Assembly (NCBI GenBank): GCA_963770895.1
Contig: CAVYRF010000001.1
Coordinates: 1,728,001 to 1,792,000 of the forward strand
DNA: 64,000 bases
Reading direction: 5' to 3'
Source: an uncultured Acidobacteriota bacterium
GTDB taxonomy: Bacteria > Acidobacteriota > Thermoanaerobaculia > Multivoradales > UBA5704
The position numbers and the translations under genes were made by a program. Below the pieces are notes generated by a model. The model did not search any database and had not been told where the DNA came from. It saw only the letters and a list, made by a program, of their open reading frames with translations. Shown here one piece after another: positions 528 through 48,212 of the stretch (its first letter is position 1; each line of letters opens with the position of its first letter).

Positions 528-1892
528 TCAAGCTTGCTGCCAGGTGTCAGCGATCCGTTTCACCTCTTCCTCCGCCGTGTGCGCCGCCTCGTCGGGATTC
601 TGTTCGCCCTTGAGAACACGTAGGAACATCCGCGGCACGACGAAGGTGTTGAACGCTTCCATCGCCACCGGGTTGGCGAATCCGGGATAGCCGAGGTTGG
701 TGGTCCAGTGCAGCGCGTCCTTGAGCTCCTTGTACTTGTAAGGCGGCTCGCCGCGCGCATCGTTTTCCAACCGGACGATGAGGTTCGGCACCGTTTTTTG
801 AAAGATCGGAAAGTTACAGCCCAGCGTCTGCTCGTAGATGACCCTGGAGCTGTCGATCATGTCGACCAGGAACTGCCGCGCCGCCGCGCCGTTGTCGGCA
901 AAATTCCACACTGTCGAGCAGTTGGTGGCGTGGGGAAACGCCATGATGCCGGTGACGCCGAGCAGCGGCGGGCTCAGGCGCATCTGCCTGGCCGCTTCGG
1001 GGTTCTCCTTTTCGGCCATGCGCAGCACGGCGATCGAGCCGACGGTGCAGGAGGTCTGGCGCGCCACCATGGCGCGCAGGTTGGCCGCCGACCCCCAGGC
1101 CAGCTGTTCGGCGGCGCCGGCTTCGTCGACCAGCTTTTTGACGTACTTGAGCGCCGCCTGGGTGCGGGAGCCGCGATTGATCAGGATATTGCCGGCGGCG
1201 TCCAGCACGCTGCCGCCAAAGGAGCAGAGCAGGCCGTTCAGGGTGATGTTGCCTTCCAGGGTCGGCGTCAGCGCCAGGCCGCAGGGCGCGCCCAGCTGGG
1301 AGCGGATTCTGCCGCCGCCGCTGGCCAGCCCGTTGTAGTGCGTCGGCCCCAGCGGCATCTTGACCGCGCCCCACGAGTCCGCAAAGTAGTGGATCGGCGT
1401 CGGCAGCCACGAATCGGCGAAGGCATAGTACCGTTTGCTCTTGGGATCGAACGTGGAGCGGTGCCCCAGCCGGTCGATCGAGCCGTGCTTGAAGCTGACG
1501 TCCTGGTAGACCACCGCGTGATCGATCGCATGGCGCGCGAACTCGGCCGGCGGCCAGGGAAACATGAACAGGTCGTGTCCCTTGCCGGCAGCCGTTTCGG
1601 CGGCGGCGCGCGCATGGACTTCCTCCACCGGGATGAGATCGACGATCACCTTGGTGTCGTTGCGCTCGCCCCACTGCTTGGCCAGCACCTGCTCGAACCA
1701 CACGTCGTACTCGGGAATGAAATGCGCCCACTTGGCGATCTTCAAGGTGCCCGGCGCGAGCGAGGCGCCGGCGCGGCCTGCGGTCAGCAGCGCCGGTCCC
1801 GCCGCGGTGGCGGCCGCCGCCGTGCCCGCCGCCAGCCGCAGGAAGTCCCGCCGCGACACGCCTCGCTGCTGCGGCGGCGTCGTGCTTGCCAT
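528..1892 (-). CDS. Tat-exported ABC-type extracellular solute-binding protein
   Basis: VSRRDFLRLAAG Tat motif; sugar-SBP-like layout; GGAGGA RBS before ATG at 1892. Confidence 0.75.
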   Translation of the reverse strand: MASTTPPQQRGVSRRDFLRLAAGTAAAATAAGPALLTAGRAGASLAPGTLKIAKWAHFIPEYDVWFEQVLAKQWGERNDTKVIVDLIPVEEVHARAAAETAAGKGHDLFMFPWPPAEFARHAIDHAVVYQDVSFKHGSIDRLGHRSTFDPKSKRYYAFADSWLPTPIHYFADSWGAVKMPLGPTHYNGLASGGGRIRSQLGAPCGLALTPTLEGNITLNGLLCSFGGSVLDAAGNILINRGSRTQAALKYVKKLVDEAGAAEQLAWGSAANLRAMVARQTSCTVGSIAVLRMAEKENPEAARQMRLSPPLLGVTGIMAFPHATNCSTVWNFADNGAAARQFLVDMIDSSRVIYEQTLGCNFPIFQKTVPNLIVRLENDARGEPPYKYKELKDALHWTTNLGYPGFANPVAMEAFNTFVVPRMFLRVLKGEQNPDEAAHTAEEEVKRIADTWQQA

Positions 1893-22442: not shown

Positions 22443-22703
22443 CAGAGCGCAAGCTCAGGCGCCGCGAGCCGCGCTGCGGCGGCGGCTCGTCCGGATGCCG
22501 AACCATCCTCCGCGGAGCGCAGTGCGCATTGCACACTGCGCAGGTGGCGCCCCGGGGCTCCGGCTTGCTCAGGTCGTGCTTGACAGCTGCACGGCTTCAA
22601 GAGATACACTTAAGCATCATTCGCGCAGCTTGAAAGCCATTGCACCCGCCGGTCGCGAGCCCATCTGGTGCCGATCGGTTGCCAGGCGGTGAGGAGTCAT
22701 CGA

Positions 22704-23948
22704 ATGTCTCCGATGCAGCTTTCCCATCCGGCTCGCAGGCGCTACGAACCGATCCGGGACCTGGCGGCGTTGCAGTTGCACCTGCAATGGGCGACGTCGC
22801 TCGAACTGTCGACCATCGCGCCGTATCTGTGCGCGCTCTACTCGGTGCAGGACCAGACCAGCGCCGCCGCGACGCTGGTGCGCGGCGTCGCCATCGAGGA
22901 GATGCTGCACATGATGCTGGCCAGCAACCTGATGAACTCGGTCGGCGCCAGCCCGAAGCTGTCGGGGGAGTTCGTCGCCAAGTACCCGACCTTCCTGCCG
23001 CACCACGCGGCCGGCGGCCCGTACGTGCAGCTGCAGGCGCTGTCGCCGGCGCTCGCGTCGACGACGTTCATGCCCATCGAGCAGCCCGAGGCGTCGCCGC
23101 AGGCGCCGCCACAGGGCGACTACTTTCAAACCATCGGCCAGTTCTACAAGGCGATCGAGCTGGGTTTCCGCCACCTGGCGGCGGAGCACGGCGAAAAATG
23201 GCTGTTCGGGCACGACACCGGGTGCCAGCACGGCGATACCTACTTCGGCGGCGGCGGCGGTCACCTGGTGGTGGTCGAAGACCTCCAGTCGGCACTGCTG
23301 GCGCTCCAGGAGATCACCGAGCAGGGCGAGGGCGCCGCCTGGCCCCACCCGCCGCTGCCCGGCGAAGACCCCTTCGGCAGCTACGAGCAGTACGGCATCC
23401 GCCTTGACGGCACCTACGGCCCCATCCTGGGAACGCCCTGGGAGATGTCGCACTACTACAAGTTCAAGCAGCTGGCCGACGGCACGGTGGCCGCTCCCGC
23501 GGTCTATCCGATGCAGGCAAACCCGGACAGCGATTCGCTCAGCGGTGCCGTTCGCAAGCTTTCGGAGCTGTGCGACGCCAGCTACGGCCTGCTGCTGCGC
23601 GCCCTCGAAAAGGCGCTCGGCACGCGGCGCGAGCAGGCCGACTTCTTTGGCATCGCCTTCCCGGTGATGCAGTTCGTGCTGCCGCGGCTCTCGGCTCTGC
23701 TGATGCAGACCGCCCTGCTGCCCGAGGCCGACCCCACGCTGGGTCCGAACGCCGGCCCCAGCTTCATGCCGCGCAACGTGCCGGCCGCGGAGGTCGCTCG
23801 CCAGGCCGAAGAGCTGCTCGCCGCGCCGCCGGCCGACCGCGGCGACAGCTACGCGACGTTGTGGGTTACGACCCTGGGCGCGGTGACCCCCGTCCTGCGC
23901 CACGCGGCAGCGCTGGCCCGCGGCCACGCCGCGCTGGACGCTCCCTAG
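22704..23948 (+). CDS. Ferritin-like domain protein (VioB/chromopyrrolate synthase-related domain)
   Basis: LELSTIAPYLCALYS, IEEMLHM, TIGQFY, ITEQGEG, SHYYKF motifs; GAGGAG RBS. Confidence 0.8.
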   Translation: MSPMQLSHPARRRYEPIRDLAALQLHLQWATSLELSTIAPYLCALYSVQDQTSAAATLVRGVAIEEMLHMMLASNLMNSVGASPKLSGEFVAKYPTFLPHHAAGGPYVQLQALSPALASTTFMPIEQPEASPQAPPQGDYFQTIGQFYKAIELGFRHLAAEHGEKWLFGHDTGCQHGDTYFGGGGGHLVVVEDLQSALLALQEITEQGEGAAWPHPPLPGEDPFGSYEQYGIRLDGTYGPILGTPWEMSHYYKFKQLADGTVAAPAVYPMQANPDSDSLSGAVRKLSELCDASYGLLLRALEKALGTRREQADFFGIAFPVMQFVLPRLSALLMQTALLPEADPTLGPNAGPSFMPRNVPAAEVARQAEELLAAPPADRGDSYATLWVTTLGAVTPVLRHAAALARGHAALDAP

Positions 23949-23999
23949 GCCCGCGGACCCGACACCAGGCCCGCGGCGATCGCACTTCGAGGGGACAGC

Positions 24000-26060
24000 A
24001 TGGACCCGCAACCGCACTTCAAGATCCATCCGGCCATCGGCGTCGCCCGCCTGGGCGACAGCGAGGAGTACTACCTGGCGCCCGAAACCGCGGGCGGCCT
24101 GCCGCTGCTGCCGGATGGGCGGCCGTTTGAGGCCGGCGACTTCCGCGATTCCCATCACGGCCTGCGCCGCCAGGGGGCCCGCTTCACGATCTATCGTTAC
24201 GACGGTCCCGACGACGCCGGCGTCGAGGTGAAGGCGGGCGACCACGGCGTCGCCCGCATCGAATGGCAGGTGCATCTCGCCAACAAAAAGGCCATCTGGT
24301 ACCAGTTCGAAGTGCTGCTCGGCGAATTCGGCTATTCCCCCGACCATCCGCTGCGCAACGCCCAGGTGACCGAACCGGCGAAACGCCGGGCGATGATCAT
24401 CGATCCGGGCCCGCGCCGGCTGACCGGTCCCGGCCAGGCGGTGGAGTTTTCGCGCGCCGACAACCCGCACCACTACCCGATGACCTGGCCGCCCAAGGAC
24501 CTGCAGCCGTTCACCATCGATTCGCTGGGCGGCCTGCGCACCGACGCCCAGGGGCGCCTGGTGGTGCTCGGCGGCTACGGCCGTTCGGGATCGTCGATCC
24601 ATCCGCCGCAGATCCAGCAGTACGCCAACAATCCCGGCTGGTGGGACGACACCGCCGACGGGCCGGTGACCGCGGAGATCGTGTTCGAAGACGGCCGCCG
24701 CCAGCCGGTGGAGGTGCCGTCCTGGGTGTTCGTGGCGCCGCCGCGCTACGCGCCGCAGCTGCTCAACCTGGTGACGCTGTACGACACGGTGTTCGACACC
24801 TTTGTGCGCAACGCCGGCCTGCGGCCGGAGGTCTTCGCCGAGGGTCAATGGCAGCGCGACTACCACCCGGACTGGAACGGCGAGATCCTGCCGATCCTGG
24901 AACGCATCCGCCGCTACCACTGGGTGGTGGCAATCCCGCCGCAGGCGCACGACCTGGACCTGCCCAAGCTGGGCGACCGCGCCGCCGAATACAACGCCCT
25001 GCGCCAGTTCTATCTCAGCGTCATCCGGCCGCCGGCAAGGCCCAACTCGCTCACCGGCGCCGCCAACGGGCTGACCCAGATGCCCTACCTGGCGGGCGAC
25101 AACTGCCTGCAACCGGATGCGCTCAACTCCAACTACCTGACGGTCACCAACACGCAATATTTCTTTTTGCAGCAGTGGGCGCTCGGCAGGTTCCGCCACG
25201 GCACCGCGGCGGCGCCCGTCGCGCCGACCCCGCCGGGCATGGCGCTCGACCGCGCGGCGCTCGAAAACTGCGTTGGCGGCGCCTTCTCGCCCGGCATCGA
25301 AATGACCTGGATCAGCCGCGACCTGCGCATCTACGCGCAGCCGTTCCGCATCAAACACAAGCCGCACGTGGTGCCGCCGCTCAGCCTGGGCGAAGACTTC
25401 GCGCAGGGCCTGGAGCCGGGCGACGTCGGCAAATACATGGCCCAGCCCTGGCAAGCCGATTTCAACGAATGTTCGTCGCAGCCGATCGGCGATCGCGTGT
25501 TCTGGTGGTGGCCGGTGCAGCGGCCGCTGTTCGTGCACGTCGAAACGGAAGGCATGCTCAGGCAGGTCCCCTGGCTGGGCACCGACGCCGACCAGAACGC
25601 CGACGACTACCTGCAATTCGGCATGGACATCCAGATGGTGTCGGGTTGGAAAGACCTCGGTTTCGTGATCGATCAGGGCACGCCGGGTCACCCCCGCTTC
25701 GTCGAGGTCCAACGCAACCTGCCGCGGCCTCCCGCGCCTGCCGCCTCCCACGCCGCCACGCAGGCCGGCCACGGCGGCCAGGCCAGCCGCGGCGGCGGGC
25801 ACCAGACCCACCACGTGGCGGAGGCCGGCGCTGCCGGCGCTCCCGGCGGCGGCGGCGTCCACGGCGCCGGCGTCCATGGTGCTGCAGAGCATGGCGAAGC
25901 GAGCCCCGGCGGCGGCTCTCACGGCGGCGTCCCTGACGGTGGCGGCGTGCGCGGTGGCGGCGTCGCCGGCGGTGGCGGTGTGCACGGCGGCGGCAGCGGC
26001 GTGCACGGCAGCGGCAGGGGTGGCGGGGGAGCCCGTGGCGGCGGCGACGGCCAGGTTTGA
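24000..26060 (+). CDS. LodA/GoxA family CTQ-dependent amino-acid oxidase with a Gly/His-rich tail
   Basis: KIHPAIGVARLGDS, VHLANKKA, WWDDTADGP, ENCVGGAFSPGIEMTW (CTQ Cys), PWQADFNEC, WWPVQRP (CTQ Trp). Confidence 0.92.
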   Translation: MDPQPHFKIHPAIGVARLGDSEEYYLAPETAGGLPLLPDGRPFEAGDFRDSHHGLRRQGARFTIYRYDGPDDAGVEVKAGDHGVARIEWQVHLANKKAIWYQFEVLLGEFGYSPDHPLRNAQVTEPAKRRAMIIDPGPRRLTGPGQAVEFSRADNPHHYPMTWPPKDLQPFTIDSLGGLRTDAQGRLVVLGGYGRSGSSIHPPQIQQYANNPGWWDDTADGPVTAEIVFEDGRRQPVEVPSWVFVAPPRYAPQLLNLVTLYDTVFDTFVRNAGLRPEVFAEGQWQRDYHPDWNGEILPILERIRRYHWVVAIPPQAHDLDLPKLGDRAAEYNALRQFYLSVIRPPARPNSLTGAANGLTQMPYLAGDNCLQPDALNSNYLTVTNTQYFFLQQWALGRFRHGTAAAPVAPTPPGMALDRAALENCVGGAFSPGIEMTWISRDLRIYAQPFRIKHKPHVVPPLSLGEDFAQGLEPGDVGKYMAQPWQADFNECSSQPIGDRVFWWWPVQRPLFVHVETEGMLRQVPWLGTDADQNADDYLQFGMDIQMVSGWKDLGFVIDQGTPGHPRFVEVQRNLPRPPAPAASHAATQAGHGGQASRGGGHQTHHVAEAGAAGAPGGGGVHGAGVHGAAEHGEASPGGGSHGGVPDGGGVRGGGVAGGGGVHGGGSGVHGSGRGGGGARGGGDGQV

Positions 26061-36396: not shown

Positions 36397-36975
36397 CTAC
36401 TCCTGCCTGGCAAGCCTGGCGGCCTGCGCAGCCTGGTGCTCGGCGACGAGCGACTTGAGCTTCGGCCACATCTCCTTGTAGGGGCAAAGGGAGCTGTTGA
36501 GGAACCGGCCGGCGGCCGCCGACCAGCCCCTGCCCAGCGGCAGCATGCAGGCGCCGAACTCGACCAGCCGGGCTACATTGGCGCGCACCGCCGGATGCGC
36601 CCACATCTCCGGCGCCATCGCCGGGCCGAAGGCGACCGGCCCGGTGAAGCTCAGATAACAGTGGGCGAGCAGCGTCTCCGCCGAACCTCCGGCGCAGCGC
36701 GCAAGGGTGGTGGCGCTGGCCGGTGCGACCAGGAAGAGATCGATGTCCTTGACCAGTTCGGGCGGGGAACGCATCGGACGCGGGTCGGACCACGGATCGA
36801 CATGCACGTCGACGCGCACCATGGCCTCGAGCGCCTGCGGATTGACAAAGCGAGCGGCGGCTGACGTCATGACCACCCGCAGCTCCTCGACCTCGGGCTC
36901 GGCCCGGAGGTTGATCAGGTAGGAGTGGATGTTAAGGACGCCGATCGAGCCGCTCACGCCGACCAGGATTCTCAT
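36397..36975 (-). CDS. EpiD/LanD-like HFCD flavoprotein
   Basis: ILVGVSGSIG, APASATT, PAMAPEMW; stand-alone 192 aa with no CoaB domain; adjacent to a Cys-terminal peptide. Confidence 0.82.
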   Translation of the reverse strand: MRILVGVSGSIGVLNIHSYLINLRAEPEVEELRVVMTSAAARFVNPQALEAMVRVDVHVDPWSDPRPMRSPPELVKDIDLFLVAPASATTLARCAGGSAETLLAHCYLSFTGPVAFGPAMAPEMWAHPAVRANVARLVEFGACMLPLGRGWSAAAGRFLNSSLCPYKEMWPKLKSLVAEHQAAQAARLARQE

Positions 36976-36997
36976 CGCGCAGGCTCCGCGCGCTGCC

Positions 36998-37044
36998 GCC
37001 GGTCTGCCGGAGAGGGCGTGCGACCGCCGTCTTGGCAGACCGGC
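36998..37044 (-). promoter_or_regulatory. Stem-loop directly downstream of precursor 1
   Basis: GCCGGTCTGCC (36998-37008) pairs with GGCAGACCGGC (37034-37044). Confidence 0.55.
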
Positions 37045-37053
37045 CCTGACAGC

Positions 37054-37197
37054 TCAACAGCCGCCGTTGTTGTTGATATTGGTTTCTTCGTCTGAGGATG
37101 CCGCGCCGCCCGAGACATCTTCCAGCACGGTTTCGTCGATCTCACCGCTGCCAGCGTCCTCGAGTTCCTTTGCAACGTCTTCCGGTTTCTGGTCCAT
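37054..37197 (-). CDS. RiPP precursor peptide 1 (47 aa)
   Basis: MDQKPEDVAKELEDAGSGEIDETVLEDVSGG|AASSDEETNINNNGGC; AAGGAGG RBS; double-glycine leader. Confidence 0.88.
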   Translation of the reverse strand: MDQKPEDVAKELEDAGSGEIDETVLEDVSGGAASSDEETNINNNGGC

Positions 37198-41470: not shown

Positions 41471-41584
41471 TCAGTTGGGATTGTTGATGATGTTGTTGTT
41501 GTCGTCCGGCTTCGCATCGCCGCCCGACACGTCTTCCAGAACCTCGTCATCCAGCTCTGCACTCTTGGACTTCTCGTCGGCCAT
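41471..41584 (-). CDS. RiPP precursor peptide 2 (37 aa)
   Basis: Hand translation MADEKSKSAELDDEVLEDVSGG|DAKPDDNNNIINNPN*; AAAGGAG RBS; same LEDVSGG leader as peptide 1; below the ORF-track cutoff. Confidence 0.88.
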   Translation of the reverse strand: MADEKSKSAELDDEVLEDVSGGDAKPDDNNNIINNPN

Positions 41585-44001: not shown

Positions 44002-44372
44002 TTGCGACCTCCTTGGCGTTGCGTTCCGCCTGCCGTCGGAGCGAAGGATCTGCCGGGGCGTCTCCTTCGTCTCATGGTGCTTCGTATATGCCAACATTAC
44101 CCTATAACAGTGAGTAGTTGATACGCAATACAACGTACAAATGAAATCATGTTTAATACCTGACAGGGGTGGTCAGTTTATGGGACAAGCGCCCCAATTA
44201 CAGGCCGCGCCAGACTCTTTTCGCCGGGTTTTTGTGCTGCTCAATCTGTGCTAAGTGCCTTGTAGAAATCGATGCTTACGTAGTACTCTCTGTTTTGCGC
44301 GGTTTTGTGAGGCCGCGGGGCGCTGTCCTGGGCCTGGCAGGCCTCTCCTCGTGGAGCGCGGGACAAGGGCGA

Positions 44373-46151
44373 ATGGCACTGAACATCCTGGGGATCTCAG
44401 CGCACTACCACGATGCATCCTGTTGCCTGTTGCGCGACGGGCAGCTCATCTGCGCGGCGGAGGAAGAGCGCTTCTCCCGCGTCAAGCACGACAGCCGCCT
44501 GCCCTGGCGCTCTTTTCGCTTCTGCCTCGAACAGGGGGGCATCACCCTGCCCGAGGTCGACTGCGTCGCCTACTATGAAAATCCTGAAAAGAAGCTGTCC
44601 CGGCAGATCTGGATGGCCCTGCATCCGGATGCCTCCGACTCCATCCGCCGCAGCGTTCTGAGCCGGCTGCCGGATCGCGTCGACCGGGTCGAACGGCAGA
44701 TCCGCCACCAGCTCGGCTACACCGGCCGGTTGGAGCTTTTCGATCATCACCAGTCTCACGCCGCCAGCAGCTTTTTTTACTCCGGGTTCGAAGAGGCCGC
44801 GGTGTTGACCGTGGACGGCGTGGGCGAATGGGCGACGACCGCCTTCGGCGCCGCCGCCGGCGCCGCCATCGATCTGTTCGAAGAGGTCCGCTTCCCCAAC
44901 TCGCTGGGCATGCTGTACAGCGCCATGACCGCGTATCTGGGCTTTGACGTCAACGACGGCGAATACAAAGTCATGGGGCTCGCCCCCTACGGAGAGCCGC
45001 GCTACGTCGACCAGGTGCGCGCCCTGGTGACGCGGCAAGGGGACGGCCAGTACCGGCTCAACCTCCAGTATTTCGATTTCCTGCGGCGCAACCGGATGTA
45101 TTCGGACCAACTGGTGGATCTATTCGGGGCACCGCCGCGGTTGCCCGAGGCGGAGCTGCTGGCATTTCACCAGGACGTCGCGCGCAGCGTCCAGTGGGTG
45201 CTCGAAGAGATCCTGCTCGAAAAAGTGCACTACCTCCACGACCGGGTTCCCAGCCGCAACCTCTGCATGGCGGGCGGCGTCGCGCTCAACTGCGTGGCCA
45301 ACAGCCGCATCCTCCGCGACGGGCCCTTCGCCCAGCTGTTCGTACAGCCCGCCGCGAGCGATGCCGGCGGCTGCCTGGGCGCCGCCGCCCTGGCGCACGT
45401 GCGCCTGACCGGCGAGCGGCCGGCCCAGGGCCGCCTGGCCCACATGTACTGGGGCCCCGCCACGCCGGTCGAAGACGTCGCCGGCATGCTCGCCGGAACC
45501 GCGCTGCCGGCCCTCGACTTCCGCTGCCGGCCCGACGACCTGCTGCAGGCGACCGTCGAGCGCCTGGCGGCCGGCAAGGTCGTGGGCTGGTTCCAGGGCC
45601 GCATGGAGTTCGGACCGCGCGCGCTGGGGGCCAGGTCGATCCTGGCGGACCCGCGCGACGAAGGCATGCGCGACCGGATCAACGCCCTGGTCAAGATGCG
45701 CGAAAGCTTCCGTCCCTTCGCCCCGGCGGTTCTCGAAAGCCGGGCGCGGGATCACTTCGCCATCGACCATCCCTCTCCCTTCATGCTGGAAACCTGCCCG
45801 GTCAGCTCGCCGATCCATCTGCCGGCGGTCACCCACGTCGACCGCTCGGCCCGCCTGCAGACCGTCGACCCGGCGTCGAGCCCGCGCTTCGCCGCCCTCC
45901 TGGAGCGCTTTGCCGATCGCACCGGCTGCCCGATCCTGCTCAACACCTCCTTCAACGTCCGCGGCGAACCCATCGTCCGCACGCCGGAGGAGGCGCTGCT
46001 CTGTTTTGCACGCTCGGGCATCGATACCCTGGTCCTCGAAGACTTCGTCATCGACCGCCAATCGGTGCCGCCGGCCTGGAGCCAGCTGCTGCCGAAGCAG
46101 GAGCGACCCGGCGGGCCGAGGGTGAGCCACCAGGTGTACACGCTGCTGTAG
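44373..46151 (+). CDS. CmcH/NodU family carbamoyltransferase
   Basis: ILGISAHYHD, EEERFSRVKH, HHQSHAAS, DGVGEW, GEYKVMGLAPYG, AGGVALN, EFGPRALG, LLNTSFN. Confidence 0.93.
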   Translation: MALNILGISAHYHDASCCLLRDGQLICAAEEERFSRVKHDSRLPWRSFRFCLEQGGITLPEVDCVAYYENPEKKLSRQIWMALHPDASDSIRRSVLSRLPDRVDRVERQIRHQLGYTGRLELFDHHQSHAASSFFYSGFEEAAVLTVDGVGEWATTAFGAAAGAAIDLFEEVRFPNSLGMLYSAMTAYLGFDVNDGEYKVMGLAPYGEPRYVDQVRALVTRQGDGQYRLNLQYFDFLRRNRMYSDQLVDLFGAPPRLPEAELLAFHQDVARSVQWVLEEILLEKVHYLHDRVPSRNLCMAGGVALNCVANSRILRDGPFAQLFVQPAASDAGGCLGAAALAHVRLTGERPAQGRLAHMYWGPATPVEDVAGMLAGTALPALDFRCRPDDLLQATVERLAAGKVVGWFQGRMEFGPRALGARSILADPRDEGMRDRINALVKMRESFRPFAPAVLESRARDHFAIDHPSPFMLETCPVSSPIHLPAVTHVDRSARLQTVDPASSPRFAALLERFADRTGCPILLNTSFNVRGEPIVRTPEEALLCFARSGIDTLVLEDFVIDRQSVPPAWSQLLPKQERPGGPRVSHQVYTLL

Positions 46152-46181
46152 GTTTGCCAGCGCCCTTACCCTGGAGGAGCC

Positions 46182-48212
46182 GTGCCGGAACAGCCTGACC
46201 ACGACCAGCTTTTGAAAGCGGTCGCCGACGCGACGGCGGGCCTGCTCAGCCAGGGCGACGGCGCCGCCGCCGTTCTGATCCTGGAGCGCCTGGGCCTGCT
46301 GAAGGCGGCGGCCAGGAAGACCGCCGCCGCCTCGCCCGGCACGATCGGCGTGTGGGAGGCCGGGCCGCAGGGGCACCAGCGTTCGGCCGCGCGGCGCGAC
46401 GACTGGCATTTCTGGGCCGATGTCCAGTCCATTCCGCCCAAGGGGGAGCGGCCGCGGGTGGCGCTGGTGGGCGAATCGGTGGCCCGCGGTTTTCTCTACG
46501 ACCCGGCGTTCAATCCGGCCCAGGCCCTGGAGGCTTGCCTGACGGCGGCCCTCGGACAGCCGGTCGAAGTGCTCGACCTCGCCAAGATCGACCTGCTGCC
46601 CCAGGAGCTCATGAGCCTCACCGAGGCGGCGACCACGCTGGCGCCCGACGTGCTGGTGGTCTTCGCTGGCAATAACTGGTTCATGCACGACCAGCGCGAC
46701 CTGCCGATCGAAGCGGCCGCCCTGCGCGAGCGGGGAGCTGCCGGGCTCAAGGAGCTGCGCGAGCAGCGCCTGGCCGCCTTTGCCGCCGGCACTTTCCGGC
46801 AGCTGCTCACCGAGCTATCCCAGCGCCAGCCGCTGGTGGTGGTGGTTCCAGAGATCAACCTCGCCGACTGGCGCCTGGATGCGGAAGCGGATGCGCCCTG
46901 GCTGCCGGACGGACGCAACCGCCTCTGGCTGGAATGCCGCGCGGCGGCCCGCGCCGCGCTGGCCGCCGGTCGCCTGGACCAAGCGGCGGCCCTGGCGCGC
47001 CAGATGATCGACCTGGACGGCGGCACCGCGGCTTCCGGCTGGACCCTGCTGGCCGACTGCGCGCGCGCCACGGCAGAGACGGAAACCGCCCGCGCCTGCC
47101 TTGAAAAGGCGCGCGACGCTCACACCTGGGACTACACCCACCAGACGCCGCGGATTCTCTCTCTCGCCCAGGGCGCCTTGCGGGACTGCGCGCTGCCCGG
47201 CCGCATCGCAATCGTCGACCTGCCGCGCTGTTTCGCCGCCTGGCGCCCCGGCGAGCTCCCCGGCCGGCGCCTGTTCCTGGACTACTGCCACATGAGCGCG
47301 GAGGGGATCCGCGTCGCCATGGCGGCGACGGCATTACAGGTTGCGACGCTGCTGGACGCCAGCCGGCCGCTTCCGGCGCTGGCGAGCGTGGTCGAAGCTG
47401 CCCCCGCCCCCGACGCCCGCATCGAGGCGGCGGCCCAGTTTGCCGGGGCGCTCCATTCCGCGCATTGGGGCCAGGTGAGCCCGTTCGTCTCGGCTCTCTG
47501 TCACCAGGCCGCCCAGACGTCCCCCGAAATCGCCCAGGCGATGCGGCTCTACCTGGAATTGCAGGTCCGGCAGGCGCCGGTGTGGGCCTGCGCGGCGGCC
47601 GGGCAGCTGGCCGACGTGGCGCCGCCTTTCCTGCGCCGCTACATCCTGCATCCCCACAAAAGGCTTTTCGACCCGGTGCTGCTGCCGGCCATCGCCGGCG
47701 CGCTCGAAGAAACCGGCCTGCCCACGCTGGCCTTTCTCACCGAGCTGCGCCAGCAGGAGAGGAGCCTTTCCAACCGTCCGCGCAACCTCCTGGACCCCTA
47801 CCATCGCGCGTCCTGGGCGGACCTCGACTGGCTGGACTGGCCCAACCATTTCTGCCGCGCCTACAGCCCCAGGTCGCGCTACCCCTGGGTTTCCCGCACG
47901 CCGCGCGACCTGGCGTTCACCCTGACCTGCCGGCGCCGGCACGCGGCCGGCCCCAGCGAGTGCCACCTGTCGATCAACGGCACCTGCGCCGGACGCCTGT
48001 CCCTCACCGCCGGCTGGAGCACCTATCGCTTCAGCGCCCCCGCGGCGCTGGTGCAGGCCGGAGTGAACTGGCTGGAGATCGACTGGCCTGCCGATCCTGC
48101 GGATGGCGAACAGGCGATCGGCAGCATCGCTCATCAGCTGGAGCTTCGCCGCTACACCCCGCTGCTTCCGGTCTTTGCGGAGATCTATTCGCTGACCGCC
48201 GTCGAGACCTGA
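46182..48212 (+). CDS. SGNH-hydrolase-like protein with a TPR-like insert
   Basis: LVGESVARG (block I-like), FAGNNW (block III-like), FLDYCH (DxxH, block V); GGAGGAG RBS. Confidence 0.55.
   Translation: MPEQPDHDQLLKAVADATAGLLSQGDGAAAVLILERLGLLKAAARKTAAASPGTIGVWEAGPQGHQRSAARRDDWHFWADVQSIPPKGERPRVALVGESVARGFLYDPAFNPAQALEACLTAALGQPVEVLDLAKIDLLPQELMSLTEAATTLAPDVLVVFAGNNWFMHDQRDLPIEAAALRERGAAGLKELREQRLAAFAAGTFRQLLTELSQRQPLVVVVPEINLADWRLDAEADAPWLPDGRNRLWLECRAAARAALAAGRLDQAAALARQMIDLDGGTAASGWTLLADCARATAETETARACLEKARDAHTWDYTHQTPRILSLAQGALRDCALPGRIAIVDLPRCFAAWRPGELPGRRLFLDYCHMSAEGIRVAMAATALQVATLLDASRPLPALASVVEAAPAPDARIEAAAQFAGALHSAHWGQVSPFVSALCHQAAQTSPEIAQAMRLYLELQVRQAPVWACAAAGQLADVAPPFLRRYILHPHKRLFDPVLLPAIAGALEETGLPTLAFLTELRQQERSLSNRPRNLLDPYHRASWADLDWLDWPNHFCRAYSPRSRYPWVSRTPRDLAFTLTCRRRHAAGPSECHLSINGTCAGRLSLTAGWSTYRFSAPAALVQAGVNWLEIDWPADPADGEQAIGSIAHQLELRRYTPLLPVFAEIYSLTAVET

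Follow-up and report, generated by a model that had tools for sequence, protein, structure and literature searches.

What becomes of a LanD-type flavoenzyme when it lacks both the one His and the one Asn around which the mechanism of these enzymes is taught? The question is raised by a flavoprotein encoded on the minus strand of a 64,000-nt stretch of contig CAVYRF010000001.1 (hereafter the window, at its full length) from an uncultured acidobacterium of the class Thermoanaerobaculia. The protein has the fold of the flavin-bearing cysteine decarboxylases that assemble as homo-oligomers (HFCD). The original prediction, made from the sequence, held that it appears to lack both canonical active-site residues: Pro was noted 14 residues ahead of the PASA motif, and PxMNxxMW was read as PAMAPEMW. 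Both details hold, with Pro71 exactly 14 residues before Pro85 of PASATT (within RSPPELVKDIDLFLVAPASATT) and Ala121 in the Asn slot of residues 118–125. Here we describe the fold and family placement of this protein, the conservation of its substitutions across a clade of close homologues, and the constant tie of that clade to Cys-ended precursors of putative peptides made by the ribosome and modified after translation (RiPPs).

An HFCD flavoprotein with a rebuilt active site

With a G+C content of 0.88 at third codon positions (GC3) in a window of 70% G+C, the flavoprotein open reading frame (ORF) shows the codon-position bias of a real gene. Residues 1–142 score 74.7 bits with PF02441 (Flavoprotein), for which the cut-off is 22.7, and the AlphaFold2 (AF2) model, built from 29 homologues, has a Rossmann-like HFCD fold at a predicted local distance difference test (pLDDT) score of 93.9. 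Foldseek comparison of the model with the PDB returned SpaF (E = 2.9e-15), AtHAL3a, EpiD, MrsD and TvaF as top matches, with TM-scores of 0.69–0.88 for AtHAL3a, EpiD and MrsD. Peptide decarboxylases were also the best PDB matches of a 29-sequence clade profile (SpaF 3.4e-28, TvaF 1.6e-27), and pairwise phmmer searches of solved structures gave the top score to the CoaC/CoaBC type (2.1e-18). Two family assignments were tried and rejected: UbiX flavin prenyltransferase (NF004685, 18.7 bits with the cut-off at 188; a UbiX-like gene occurs separately in the genome) and CoaC/CoaBC (TIGR00521, 91.8 against 219.7; TIGR02113, 72.9 against 261.4; clamp SAAAG, not ACG).

A word-indexed search yielded 70 proteins, 57 of them at 53–92% identity to the window protein and the next best at 41%, while a profile search of 1.84 billion representatives gave 13 matches at 1e-30 or better. 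The window protein and its 57 close homologues make up the 58-sequence set to which our clade counts refer, and retrieved proteins were aligned to the clade profile. Pairwise phmmer alignments place the catalytic His of Mycobacterium smegmatis CoaBC, SpaF, human PPCDC, TvaF and Staphylococcus aureus EpiD on S70/P71. The profile alignments place that of SpaF, TvaF, CoaBC and MrsD on the first Pro of 'sppel', and MAFFT assigns the column to P71 or P72. For the PxMN Asn, all three approaches agree on Ala121. From residue 59 to residue 104 the window protein has no His; of the two that flank this stretch, H58 and H105, the former is not conserved. None of the alignments, whether pairwise, by profile or within the 58 sequences, revealed a substitute His or Asn in the site, the outcome that would have gone against the original prediction. 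His127 of the MW-x-HPA motif was considered as a compensating residue and rejected because it is common outside the clade, occurring in 98 of 157 non-clade representatives, most of which also have the catalytic His.

Homologues in other clusters share the substitutions, the His being absent from 58/58 proteins and the Asn from 58/58. Column 71 holds Pro in 57 members and Thr in one, never His; outside the clade it is His in 114 of the 157 family representatives. Column 121 is more variable (26 Ser, 19 Ala, nine Glu, three Pro and one His, never Asn), and Asn is its commonest residue among the 157. The Asn of PASANT (column 89) is replaced by Thr in 57/58, the other representatives having Asn (94), Asp (20), Thr (13) or His (10), and column 101, the D/N of G-x-A-D-[DN]-L, is Thr in 56/58. 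Stray, non-conserved His residues occur elsewhere in the loop (residues 59–83) in only four clade members. These alignments confirm the absence of the catalytic His and Asn as real and far from chance. As judged from them, four columns of the active site have changed: the catalytic His has become Pro, the Asn of PASANT and the D/N have each become Thr, and a small residue that varies stands in place of the PxMN Asn. Three Cys are specific to the clade, namely C94 (58/58), C106 (57/58) and C164 (57/58, missing from P0057), each found in only 4–9% of other representatives, and Tyr107 is fixed in 57/58.

The motifs typical of flavin binding are kept (G6/S8/G9/S10, T37 and P85-A86-S87-A88-x-T90), apart from the exchange of the PASANT Asn for Thr89. 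We take G6, S8, G9, S10, T37, P85-A86-S87-A88, T90, G97, P118 and M120 to be flavin/phosphate contacts, and all of them are nearly invariant, as counted for S8 (53/58), S10 (58/58), T37 (54/58), S87 (56/58) and T90 (58/58). The kept motifs are compatible with flavin binding by the clade flavoproteins. HFCD flavoproteins form homo-trimers or homo-dodecamers with the flavin at subunit interfaces; prediction of a complex of three flavoproteins, three flavin mononucleotides (FMN) and the precursor, with the precursor chain as the scored part, gave 0.00 in both runs, which speaks neither way on binding.

Descent of the His-less clade

Trees were computed with FastTree on 175 rows (fragments below 140 aa dropped, 16 of the 57 close homologues kept for thinning) and with an IQ-TREE quick search on 66 rows, comprising a 50-row neighbourhood and 16 outgroup rows taken evenly from the other 125. 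In the IQ-TREE result, the 21 His-less rows formed one clade (Shimodaira–Hasegawa-like approximate likelihood ratio 100, stem length 0.61) nested in a 50-row clade (support 100) of stand-alone flavoproteins of 182–250 aa. The 29 relatives in that larger clade carry both His and Asn, with PH[IV]xL and PxMNxxMW motifs and a Cys-free clamp, and the two of them that we checked against the PDB matched MrsD, SpaF and EpiD better than CoaBC. Because it is nested in this stand-alone group, whose tested members match MrsD, SpaF and EpiD best, the His-less clade appears, with root and outgroup chosen by us, to be an offshoot of LanD-like peptidyl-cysteine decarboxylases rather than of CoaC. The topology is consistent with a single loss of the catalytic His.

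The His is likewise missing from five proteins at greater distance (P0071, P0072, P0073, P0074 and P0076). P0076 retains the Asn (PVMNARM) and is among the most divergent His-less members, not firmly placed by the tree. Separately, the 739-aa protein P0075 contains at least three tandem Flavoprotein domains, all without the catalytic His in the aligned loop and with PSMN in two of three domains and PSMH in the third; it represents a separate His-less HFCD lineage. The clade has so far been found in Thermoanaerobaculia/Acidobacteriota; within a class sample of 401 genomes, it was present in three, including that of the window. Among open-access papers and bioRxiv preprints we found nothing on a His-less HFCD clade or on a pairing of HFCD with radical S-adenosylmethionine (SAM)/SPASM enzymes.

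Cys-ended precursors beside the clade flavoproteins

To describe the genomic context, we scanned genome contigs (best 80 of 425 relatives), which gave seven clade members at 54–68% identity (L001–L007, all in metagenome-assembled genomes of Thermoanaerobaculia/Acidobacteriota; the rest at most 43%), and metagenomes (best 80 of 244), which gave 16 (L081–L096). L086 duplicates L006, leaving 23 distinct clade loci including the window. A radical SAM/SPASM homologue adjoins the flavoprotein in 18 of the 23, and the precursor has a C-terminal Cys in 15/15 SPASM loci where it is readable (the window and 14 others). The endings comprise NNNGGC, NNNCLC, NNNCVC, GFMCNC, NNNCIC, QLQCYC, NGNCVC, NTNCFEC, TNGNCLC, QFQCYC, NNAAGC, NKAVAC and NTNCHTC.

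Two further loci, L089 and L090, have a different maturation system. Their operons run from a precursor of the nitrile hydratase leader peptide (NHLP) type through a YcaO gene (836 aa) and a ThcOx/nitroreductase dehydrogenase to the flavoprotein in last position, and no radical SAM gene was found in them. Both precursors are Cys-ended (...FIFCCC and ...ARACCCC), and the flavoproteins, at 68% and 64% identity to that of the window, retain SPPEL/SAPEL and PSMSPEM. The operons (L089 1682–6558, L090 1638–6558) lie beside a TonB-dependent receptor gene. A Cys-ended precursor next to the clade flavoprotein was thus seen in 17/17 readable loci. Outside this count are L081, L084, L087, L093 and L094, with contigs too short, and L088, which is tentative; there a small coding-like ORF (1075–1203, minus strand), divergent from the clade flavoprotein gene and ending in ...AAAAYCICIC, may be a third precursor type.

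SPASM homologues also occur without the flavoprotein. A phylum sample of 401 genomes contained the SPASM homologue in 12; the closest (50% identity), in genome G176, has no clade flavoprotein in its genome, and the precursors near it end in ...NQCTVINICSAE, ...GGGG and ...GGGSN. Searches of five SPASM-homologue genomes, G176 and four others, found no clade flavoprotein, only CoaBC-level matches of 70–102 bits. In G062 (L166), a search up to 1.5 kb from the SPASM homologue yielded no precursor.

Other genes recur in subsets of the clade loci. One, for a 450-aa LanC-like protein in which WCHG and C[TS]GH motifs occur, lies upstream of the flavoprotein gene and is transcribed divergently from it in L001, L002 and L004, with fragments in L084 and L087; no recognizable lanthipeptide dehydratase was found near these loci. 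Another encodes a conserved protein of 356 aa immediately upstream of the flavoprotein gene in L003, L005, L083 and L085, overlapping it in L003. It had no Pfam match, its Atlas matches were hypothetical-protein clusters only, and its AF2 model (pLDDT 69.3) is all-helical with only weak matches to tetratricopeptide repeat (TPR)-like structures (E ≥ 0.027). This protein may be a partner subunit of the flavoprotein.

Organization of the gene cluster

On the minus strand, the window cluster runs from the SPASM maturase through precursor A and a hairpin to the flavoprotein and a B12-binding radical SAM enzyme (enzyme A), whose gene starts 43 nt 3' of the flavoprotein gene (Table 1). The best NCBIfam matches of the maturase are TIGR04463 and the Clo7bot, geopeptide, CefB and PapB types, all below cut-off. 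Precursor A, preceded by the ribosome-binding site AAAGGAGG, has a single Cys in its core, at the C-terminus. The hairpin has a folding energy of −53 kcal/mol and a z-score of −4.2, and none of 200 shuffles was as stable; its function may be that of an attenuator or of a processing element by which the precursor transcript comes to exceed those of the enzyme genes. Enzyme A is closest in NCBIfam to PhpK-type and RiPP C-methyltransferase families, and in L081 a B12-binding radical SAM gene is placed relative to the flavoprotein as in the window.

A second precursor-like peptide, whose core is Asn-rich and Cys-free, lies directly 3' of a paralogous B12-binding radical SAM gene (enzyme B), without a flavoprotein or SPASM gene to go with it. 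The two paralogues may each methylate an Asn/Ile-rich core. Further along, a carbamoyltransferase of the NodU/CmcH type is followed by a GDSL-like protein of 670 aa. This pair, located 5 kb off in the window, comes directly after the precursor gene in L001 (8321–12140), L002 (10464–14290) and L004 (10445–14260) at 61–83% identity. It is pure speculation that O-carbamoylation of Ser/Thr followed by elimination could give dehydro-amino acids by an undescribed route. No LanB, LanM or other dehydratase was found in the window, from which the LanC-like and TPR-like genes of the relatives are also absent. Elsewhere in the genome there are a separate full-length CoaBC (EAHIAAAAWADV, PAMHSTMW; L161 1258–2733) and a UbiX-like gene. 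At 22668–26060 of the window (plus strand), a gene for a ferritin-like protein precedes one for a LodA-type protein (L-lysine epsilon-oxidase family); the two are apparently unrelated to the RiPP cluster.

Table 1. Positions of the features described, in window coordinates unless a relative's locus is named.
Feature	Position	Strand	Basis
HFCD-fold flavoprotein of the His/Asn-less clade, 192 aa	36397..36975	-	ORF, PF02441, AF2, Foldseek
Codon of Pro71, column of the catalytic His (EpiD His67, MrsD His75, TvaF H85)	36763..36765	-	alignments
Codon of Thr89, PASANT reading PASATT	36709..36711	-	alignments
Codon of Ala121, column of the PxMNxxMW Asn (EpiD Asn117)	36613..36615	-	alignments
Span with the three clade-specific Cys: C94 (36694-36696), C106 (36658-36660), C164 (36484-36486)	36484..36696	-	
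Radical SAM/SPASM peptide maturase, 491 aa	37281..38756	-	PF04055
Precursor peptide A, 47 aa, leader end VLEDVSGG, core AASSDEETNINNNGGC	37054..37197	-	sequence, ribosome-binding site
Stable RNA hairpin between precursor A stop and flavoprotein start	36992..37053	-	folding
B12-binding radical SAM enzyme A, 746 aa	34114..36354	-	PF02310, PF04055
Second precursor-like peptide, leader VLEDVSGG, core DAKPDDNNNIINNPN	41471..41584	-	sequence
B12-binding radical SAM enzyme B, 818 aa	41677..44133	-	
Carbamoyltransferase (44169-46151), then GDSL-like protein (46182-48212)	44169..48212	+	Pfam
LanC-like genes of relatives	L002 6331-7683, L004 6436-7788, L001 4188-5537	-	motifs consistent with zinc ligands
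356-aa protein of relatives	L003 2224-3312, L005 6906-7976, L083 2714-3751, L085 4900-5967		

Proposed function and alternatives

We favour, with moderate confidence, the view that the clade protein is an active flavoenzyme that processes the precursor's C-terminal Cys, most likely by oxidative decarboxylation, in a remodelled active site. It probably acts on the terminal Cys, because the Cys-ended precursor is its sole constant companion across two unrelated maturation systems, radical SAM/SPASM and YcaO, and the flavoprotein is absent where the peptide has another ending. The retained flavin-type motifs argue for a redox enzyme rather than a pure scaffold, and descent from LanD-like enzymes together with a C-terminal Cys as substrate makes oxidative decarboxylation the most economical reaction. 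Flavin-dependent oxidative decarboxylation of this Cys would leave an amino-enethiol or aminovinyl-thioether end and, in the window, the adjacent radical SAM/SPASM maturase would act together with the flavoenzyme. Flavin binding, catalysis by the clade protein, its decarboxylating chemistry and the sequence in which it and the SPASM enzyme act are all proposals.

The interpretation given in the original prediction is borne out in part. It treated His67 and Asn117 of EpiD as conserved and important. The columns were correctly assigned, and PMC8549060 reports that EpiD H67N abolishes activity; the His is nevertheless not indispensable, and the Asn varies in CoaBCs. In CypD, a LanD-type enzyme that is active, the natural residue of the His column is Asn80, and N80H is about 4-fold more active (bioRxiv 10.1101/2020.02.13.947028), so that a missing His is by itself no sign of lost activity. 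Several genuine CoaBCs carry His or Asp where PxMN has its Asn: 23 rows of a 224-row profile alignment that have His in the catalytic-His loop carry Asp at this column. By these alignments, real CoaBCs vary at the PxMNxxMW Asn that is supposed to be invariant. The CoaBC of the window genome and that of M. smegmatis (6TGV) both read PAMH(S/T)xMW.

Several observations weigh against an active decarboxylase. The flavoprotein falls far below all NCBIfam equivalog cut-offs, including that of the CypD-type family NF033753 (30.6 bits against 215). Near the site, no His, Asp or Glu has become conserved; among polar residues, only the three Cys and Tyr107 are new and invariant. The Asn column is so variable that the role of this residue seems simply gone. 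Beyond a long stem branch, small residues appear to have taken over four polar site columns all together. The change of the PASANT Asn to Thr might impair flavin binding, and the Asn of CypD forms hydrogen bonds, which Pro is unable to do. TvaF H85A is inactive according to the same preprint (bioRxiv 10.1101/2020.02.13.947028). For EpiD, PMC8549060 additionally describes His67 as thought to acidify the thiol and Asn117 as contacting the C-beta protons, and both residues are missing here.

Tentatively, the loss of the His might be explained by the substrate. The flavoenzyme could act on a Cys that is already S-substituted, as a radical SAM thioether or a YcaO thiazoline, making a thiol-activating His unnecessary. 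Action on a pre-crosslinked Cys had been among the suggestions of the original prediction and gains some support from the single Cys of the window core, which the SPASM enzyme and the flavoprotein would share. The nearest families of the SPASM enzyme suggest that it forms thioethers, in which case both enzymes must use this residue. In SPASM loci, the maturase would first link the sulfur of the terminal Cys to an upstream residue, perhaps a conserved Asn, and in NHLP loci YcaO would convert the last Cys to a thiazoline. The flavin would then take a hydride from C-beta while C-alpha loses CO2, a step needing no thiol-activating base and giving an aminovinyl-thioether resembling aminovinyl-cysteine, or a terminal thiazole, independently of a dehydratase. 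With the sulfur already substituted, a thiol-activating base would have nothing to do, and this would account for the exchange of His, Asn and other polar site residues for small ones. The LanC-like genes in five loci would fit the classical order, enethiol first and then Michael addition, equally well. Our literature search of open-access papers and bioRxiv found no flavin HFCD enzyme that decarboxylates an S-substituted Cys. The bottromycin P450 BotCYP performs an oxidative decarboxylation from thiazoline to thiazole. BotCYP and the radical SAM-SPASM enzyme MftC, which oxidatively decarboxylate an S-substituted or C-terminal residue, offer a functional analogy to the reaction envisaged here, the release of CO2 from a C-terminal residue with its side chain engaged; their folds and cofactors are unrelated to HFCD flavoproteins. 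Both enzyme classes are listed in a table of PMC11350588. If an S-substituted Cys is the substrate, the clade would be a new functional class of HFCD enzymes that defines an unrecognized acidobacterial RiPP family.

Two other roles for a protein that still engages the precursor seem unlikely to us, neither more so than the other. As a pseudoenzyme or scaffold, the latter also named in the original prediction, the flavoprotein would bind the Cys-ended tail or partner proteins and present the peptide to the SPASM/YcaO machinery. Such a role would fit the replacement of four otherwise conserved active-site columns, the free drift of the Asn column and the TPR-like protein directly upstream in four loci, whose overlap in L003 hints at complex formation. 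A mere peptide binder, however, has no need of near-invariant putative flavin/phosphate residues, the new invariant Cys and Tyr107 suggest gain rather than loss of function, and conservation is tight once the long stem branch is passed. Alternatively, flavin chemistry on the terminal Cys might stop short of decarboxylation and consist of dehydrogenation, oxidation of the thiol or thioether, or formation of a C-x-C disulfide, with the new Cys perhaps serving as a redox relay. The canonical decarboxylation residues are gone, three invariant Cys are specific to the clade, and most precursors end in C-x-C, all of which this proposal accommodates. It accounts less well for the window, L095 and the L091/L092 type, which have no C-x-C end (the window core has one Cys), and for the absence of C164 from P0057. 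Moreover, a decarboxylase requires a free carboxylate on the C-terminal Cys, and this is the sole feature of the substrate to be strictly conserved.

Still less credible is a flavodoxin-like donor of electrons to the iron-sulfur clusters of neighbouring radical SAM enzymes, an idea raised in the original prediction and suggested by the missing decarboxylase residues and by the position of the gene between two radical SAM genes in the window. Clade members at 64–68% identity reside in the YcaO/ThcOx/NHLP operons of L089 and L090, which have no radical SAM gene, and conversely the second B12-binding radical SAM/precursor unit of the window has no flavoprotein and G176 and four other SPASM-homologue genomes have no clade member. 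We know of no HFCD-fold protein that acts as an electron carrier. The least probable explanation, and one we consider close to untenable, is a decaying LanD/CoaC copy or a housekeeping phosphopantothenoylcysteine decarboxylase. Both canonical residues are indeed missing, and several homologues are annotated as CoaBC by the Joint Genome Institute. Against this, the reading frame is intact, the genome has its separate full-length CoaBC, and the flavoprotein has neither a CoaB domain nor a clamp Cys and falls well short of TIGR00521. Decay, also put forward in the original prediction, is refuted because the substitutions are common to 58/58 proteins at 53–92% identity and the putative flavin residues are kept, with 34 invariant columns in the 29-sequence alignment of the clade.

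Comparison with characterized systems

The LanD enzymes of lantibiotic pathways, EpiD and MrsD (PDB 1G63, 1G5Q and 1P3Y), share with the window flavoprotein the fold, the Pfam family, a stand-alone length of about 190 aa, an adjoining precursor with a C-terminal Cys, and the GxSGS, PASA-T and P-x-M motifs. They differ in having His67/His75 where Pro71 is found here, Asn117/Asn125 in place of Ala121 and the PASANT Asn in place of Thr, and the partner in the window is a radical SAM/SPASM enzyme, with no dehydratase. Closest by profile are SpaF and TvaF (PDB 7CFU and 6JLS), FMN-dependent Cys decarboxylases of the thioamitides, SpaF being also the best structural match. These enzymes belong to non-lanthipeptide RiPP clusters that also hold YcaO proteins, and the clade flavoproteins of L089 and L090 likewise stand beside a YcaO gene. 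TvaF differs in needing its His, to judge from the inactive H85A mutant, whereas the clade has Pro and no PVMN Asn.

Cypemycin decarboxylase (CypD; PDB 6JDD) resembles the clade in being active without the canonical His, but it keeps a hydrogen-bonding Asn where the clade has Pro. Its sequence match to the flavoprotein is weak (E = 1.8e-5, aligned over residues 5–102). With CoaC/CoaBC (6TGV; AtHAL3a, 1MVN), the window flavoprotein has in common the MW-x-HPA motif including His127. The catalytic His, the CoaB domain and the clamp Cys (ACG) are theirs, whereas the window flavoprotein reads SAAAG and has none of these.

Implications

LanD/HFCD enzymes are, to our knowledge, the only known makers of aminovinyl-cysteine, a motif of several potent antibiotics and antitumour peptides. 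The clade described here would add a new and conserved variant to the LanD-type flavoenzymes, one that goes with a family of Cys-ended acidobacterial RiPPs not described before. That a clade should lack both residues and yet be tied to Cys-ended precursors would mean either that the textbook residues are dispensable or that the fold now serves a new reaction whose substrate is a modified Cys. Natural products of Acidobacteriota have been little explored, and either outcome would point to an undescribed peptide family in this phylum.

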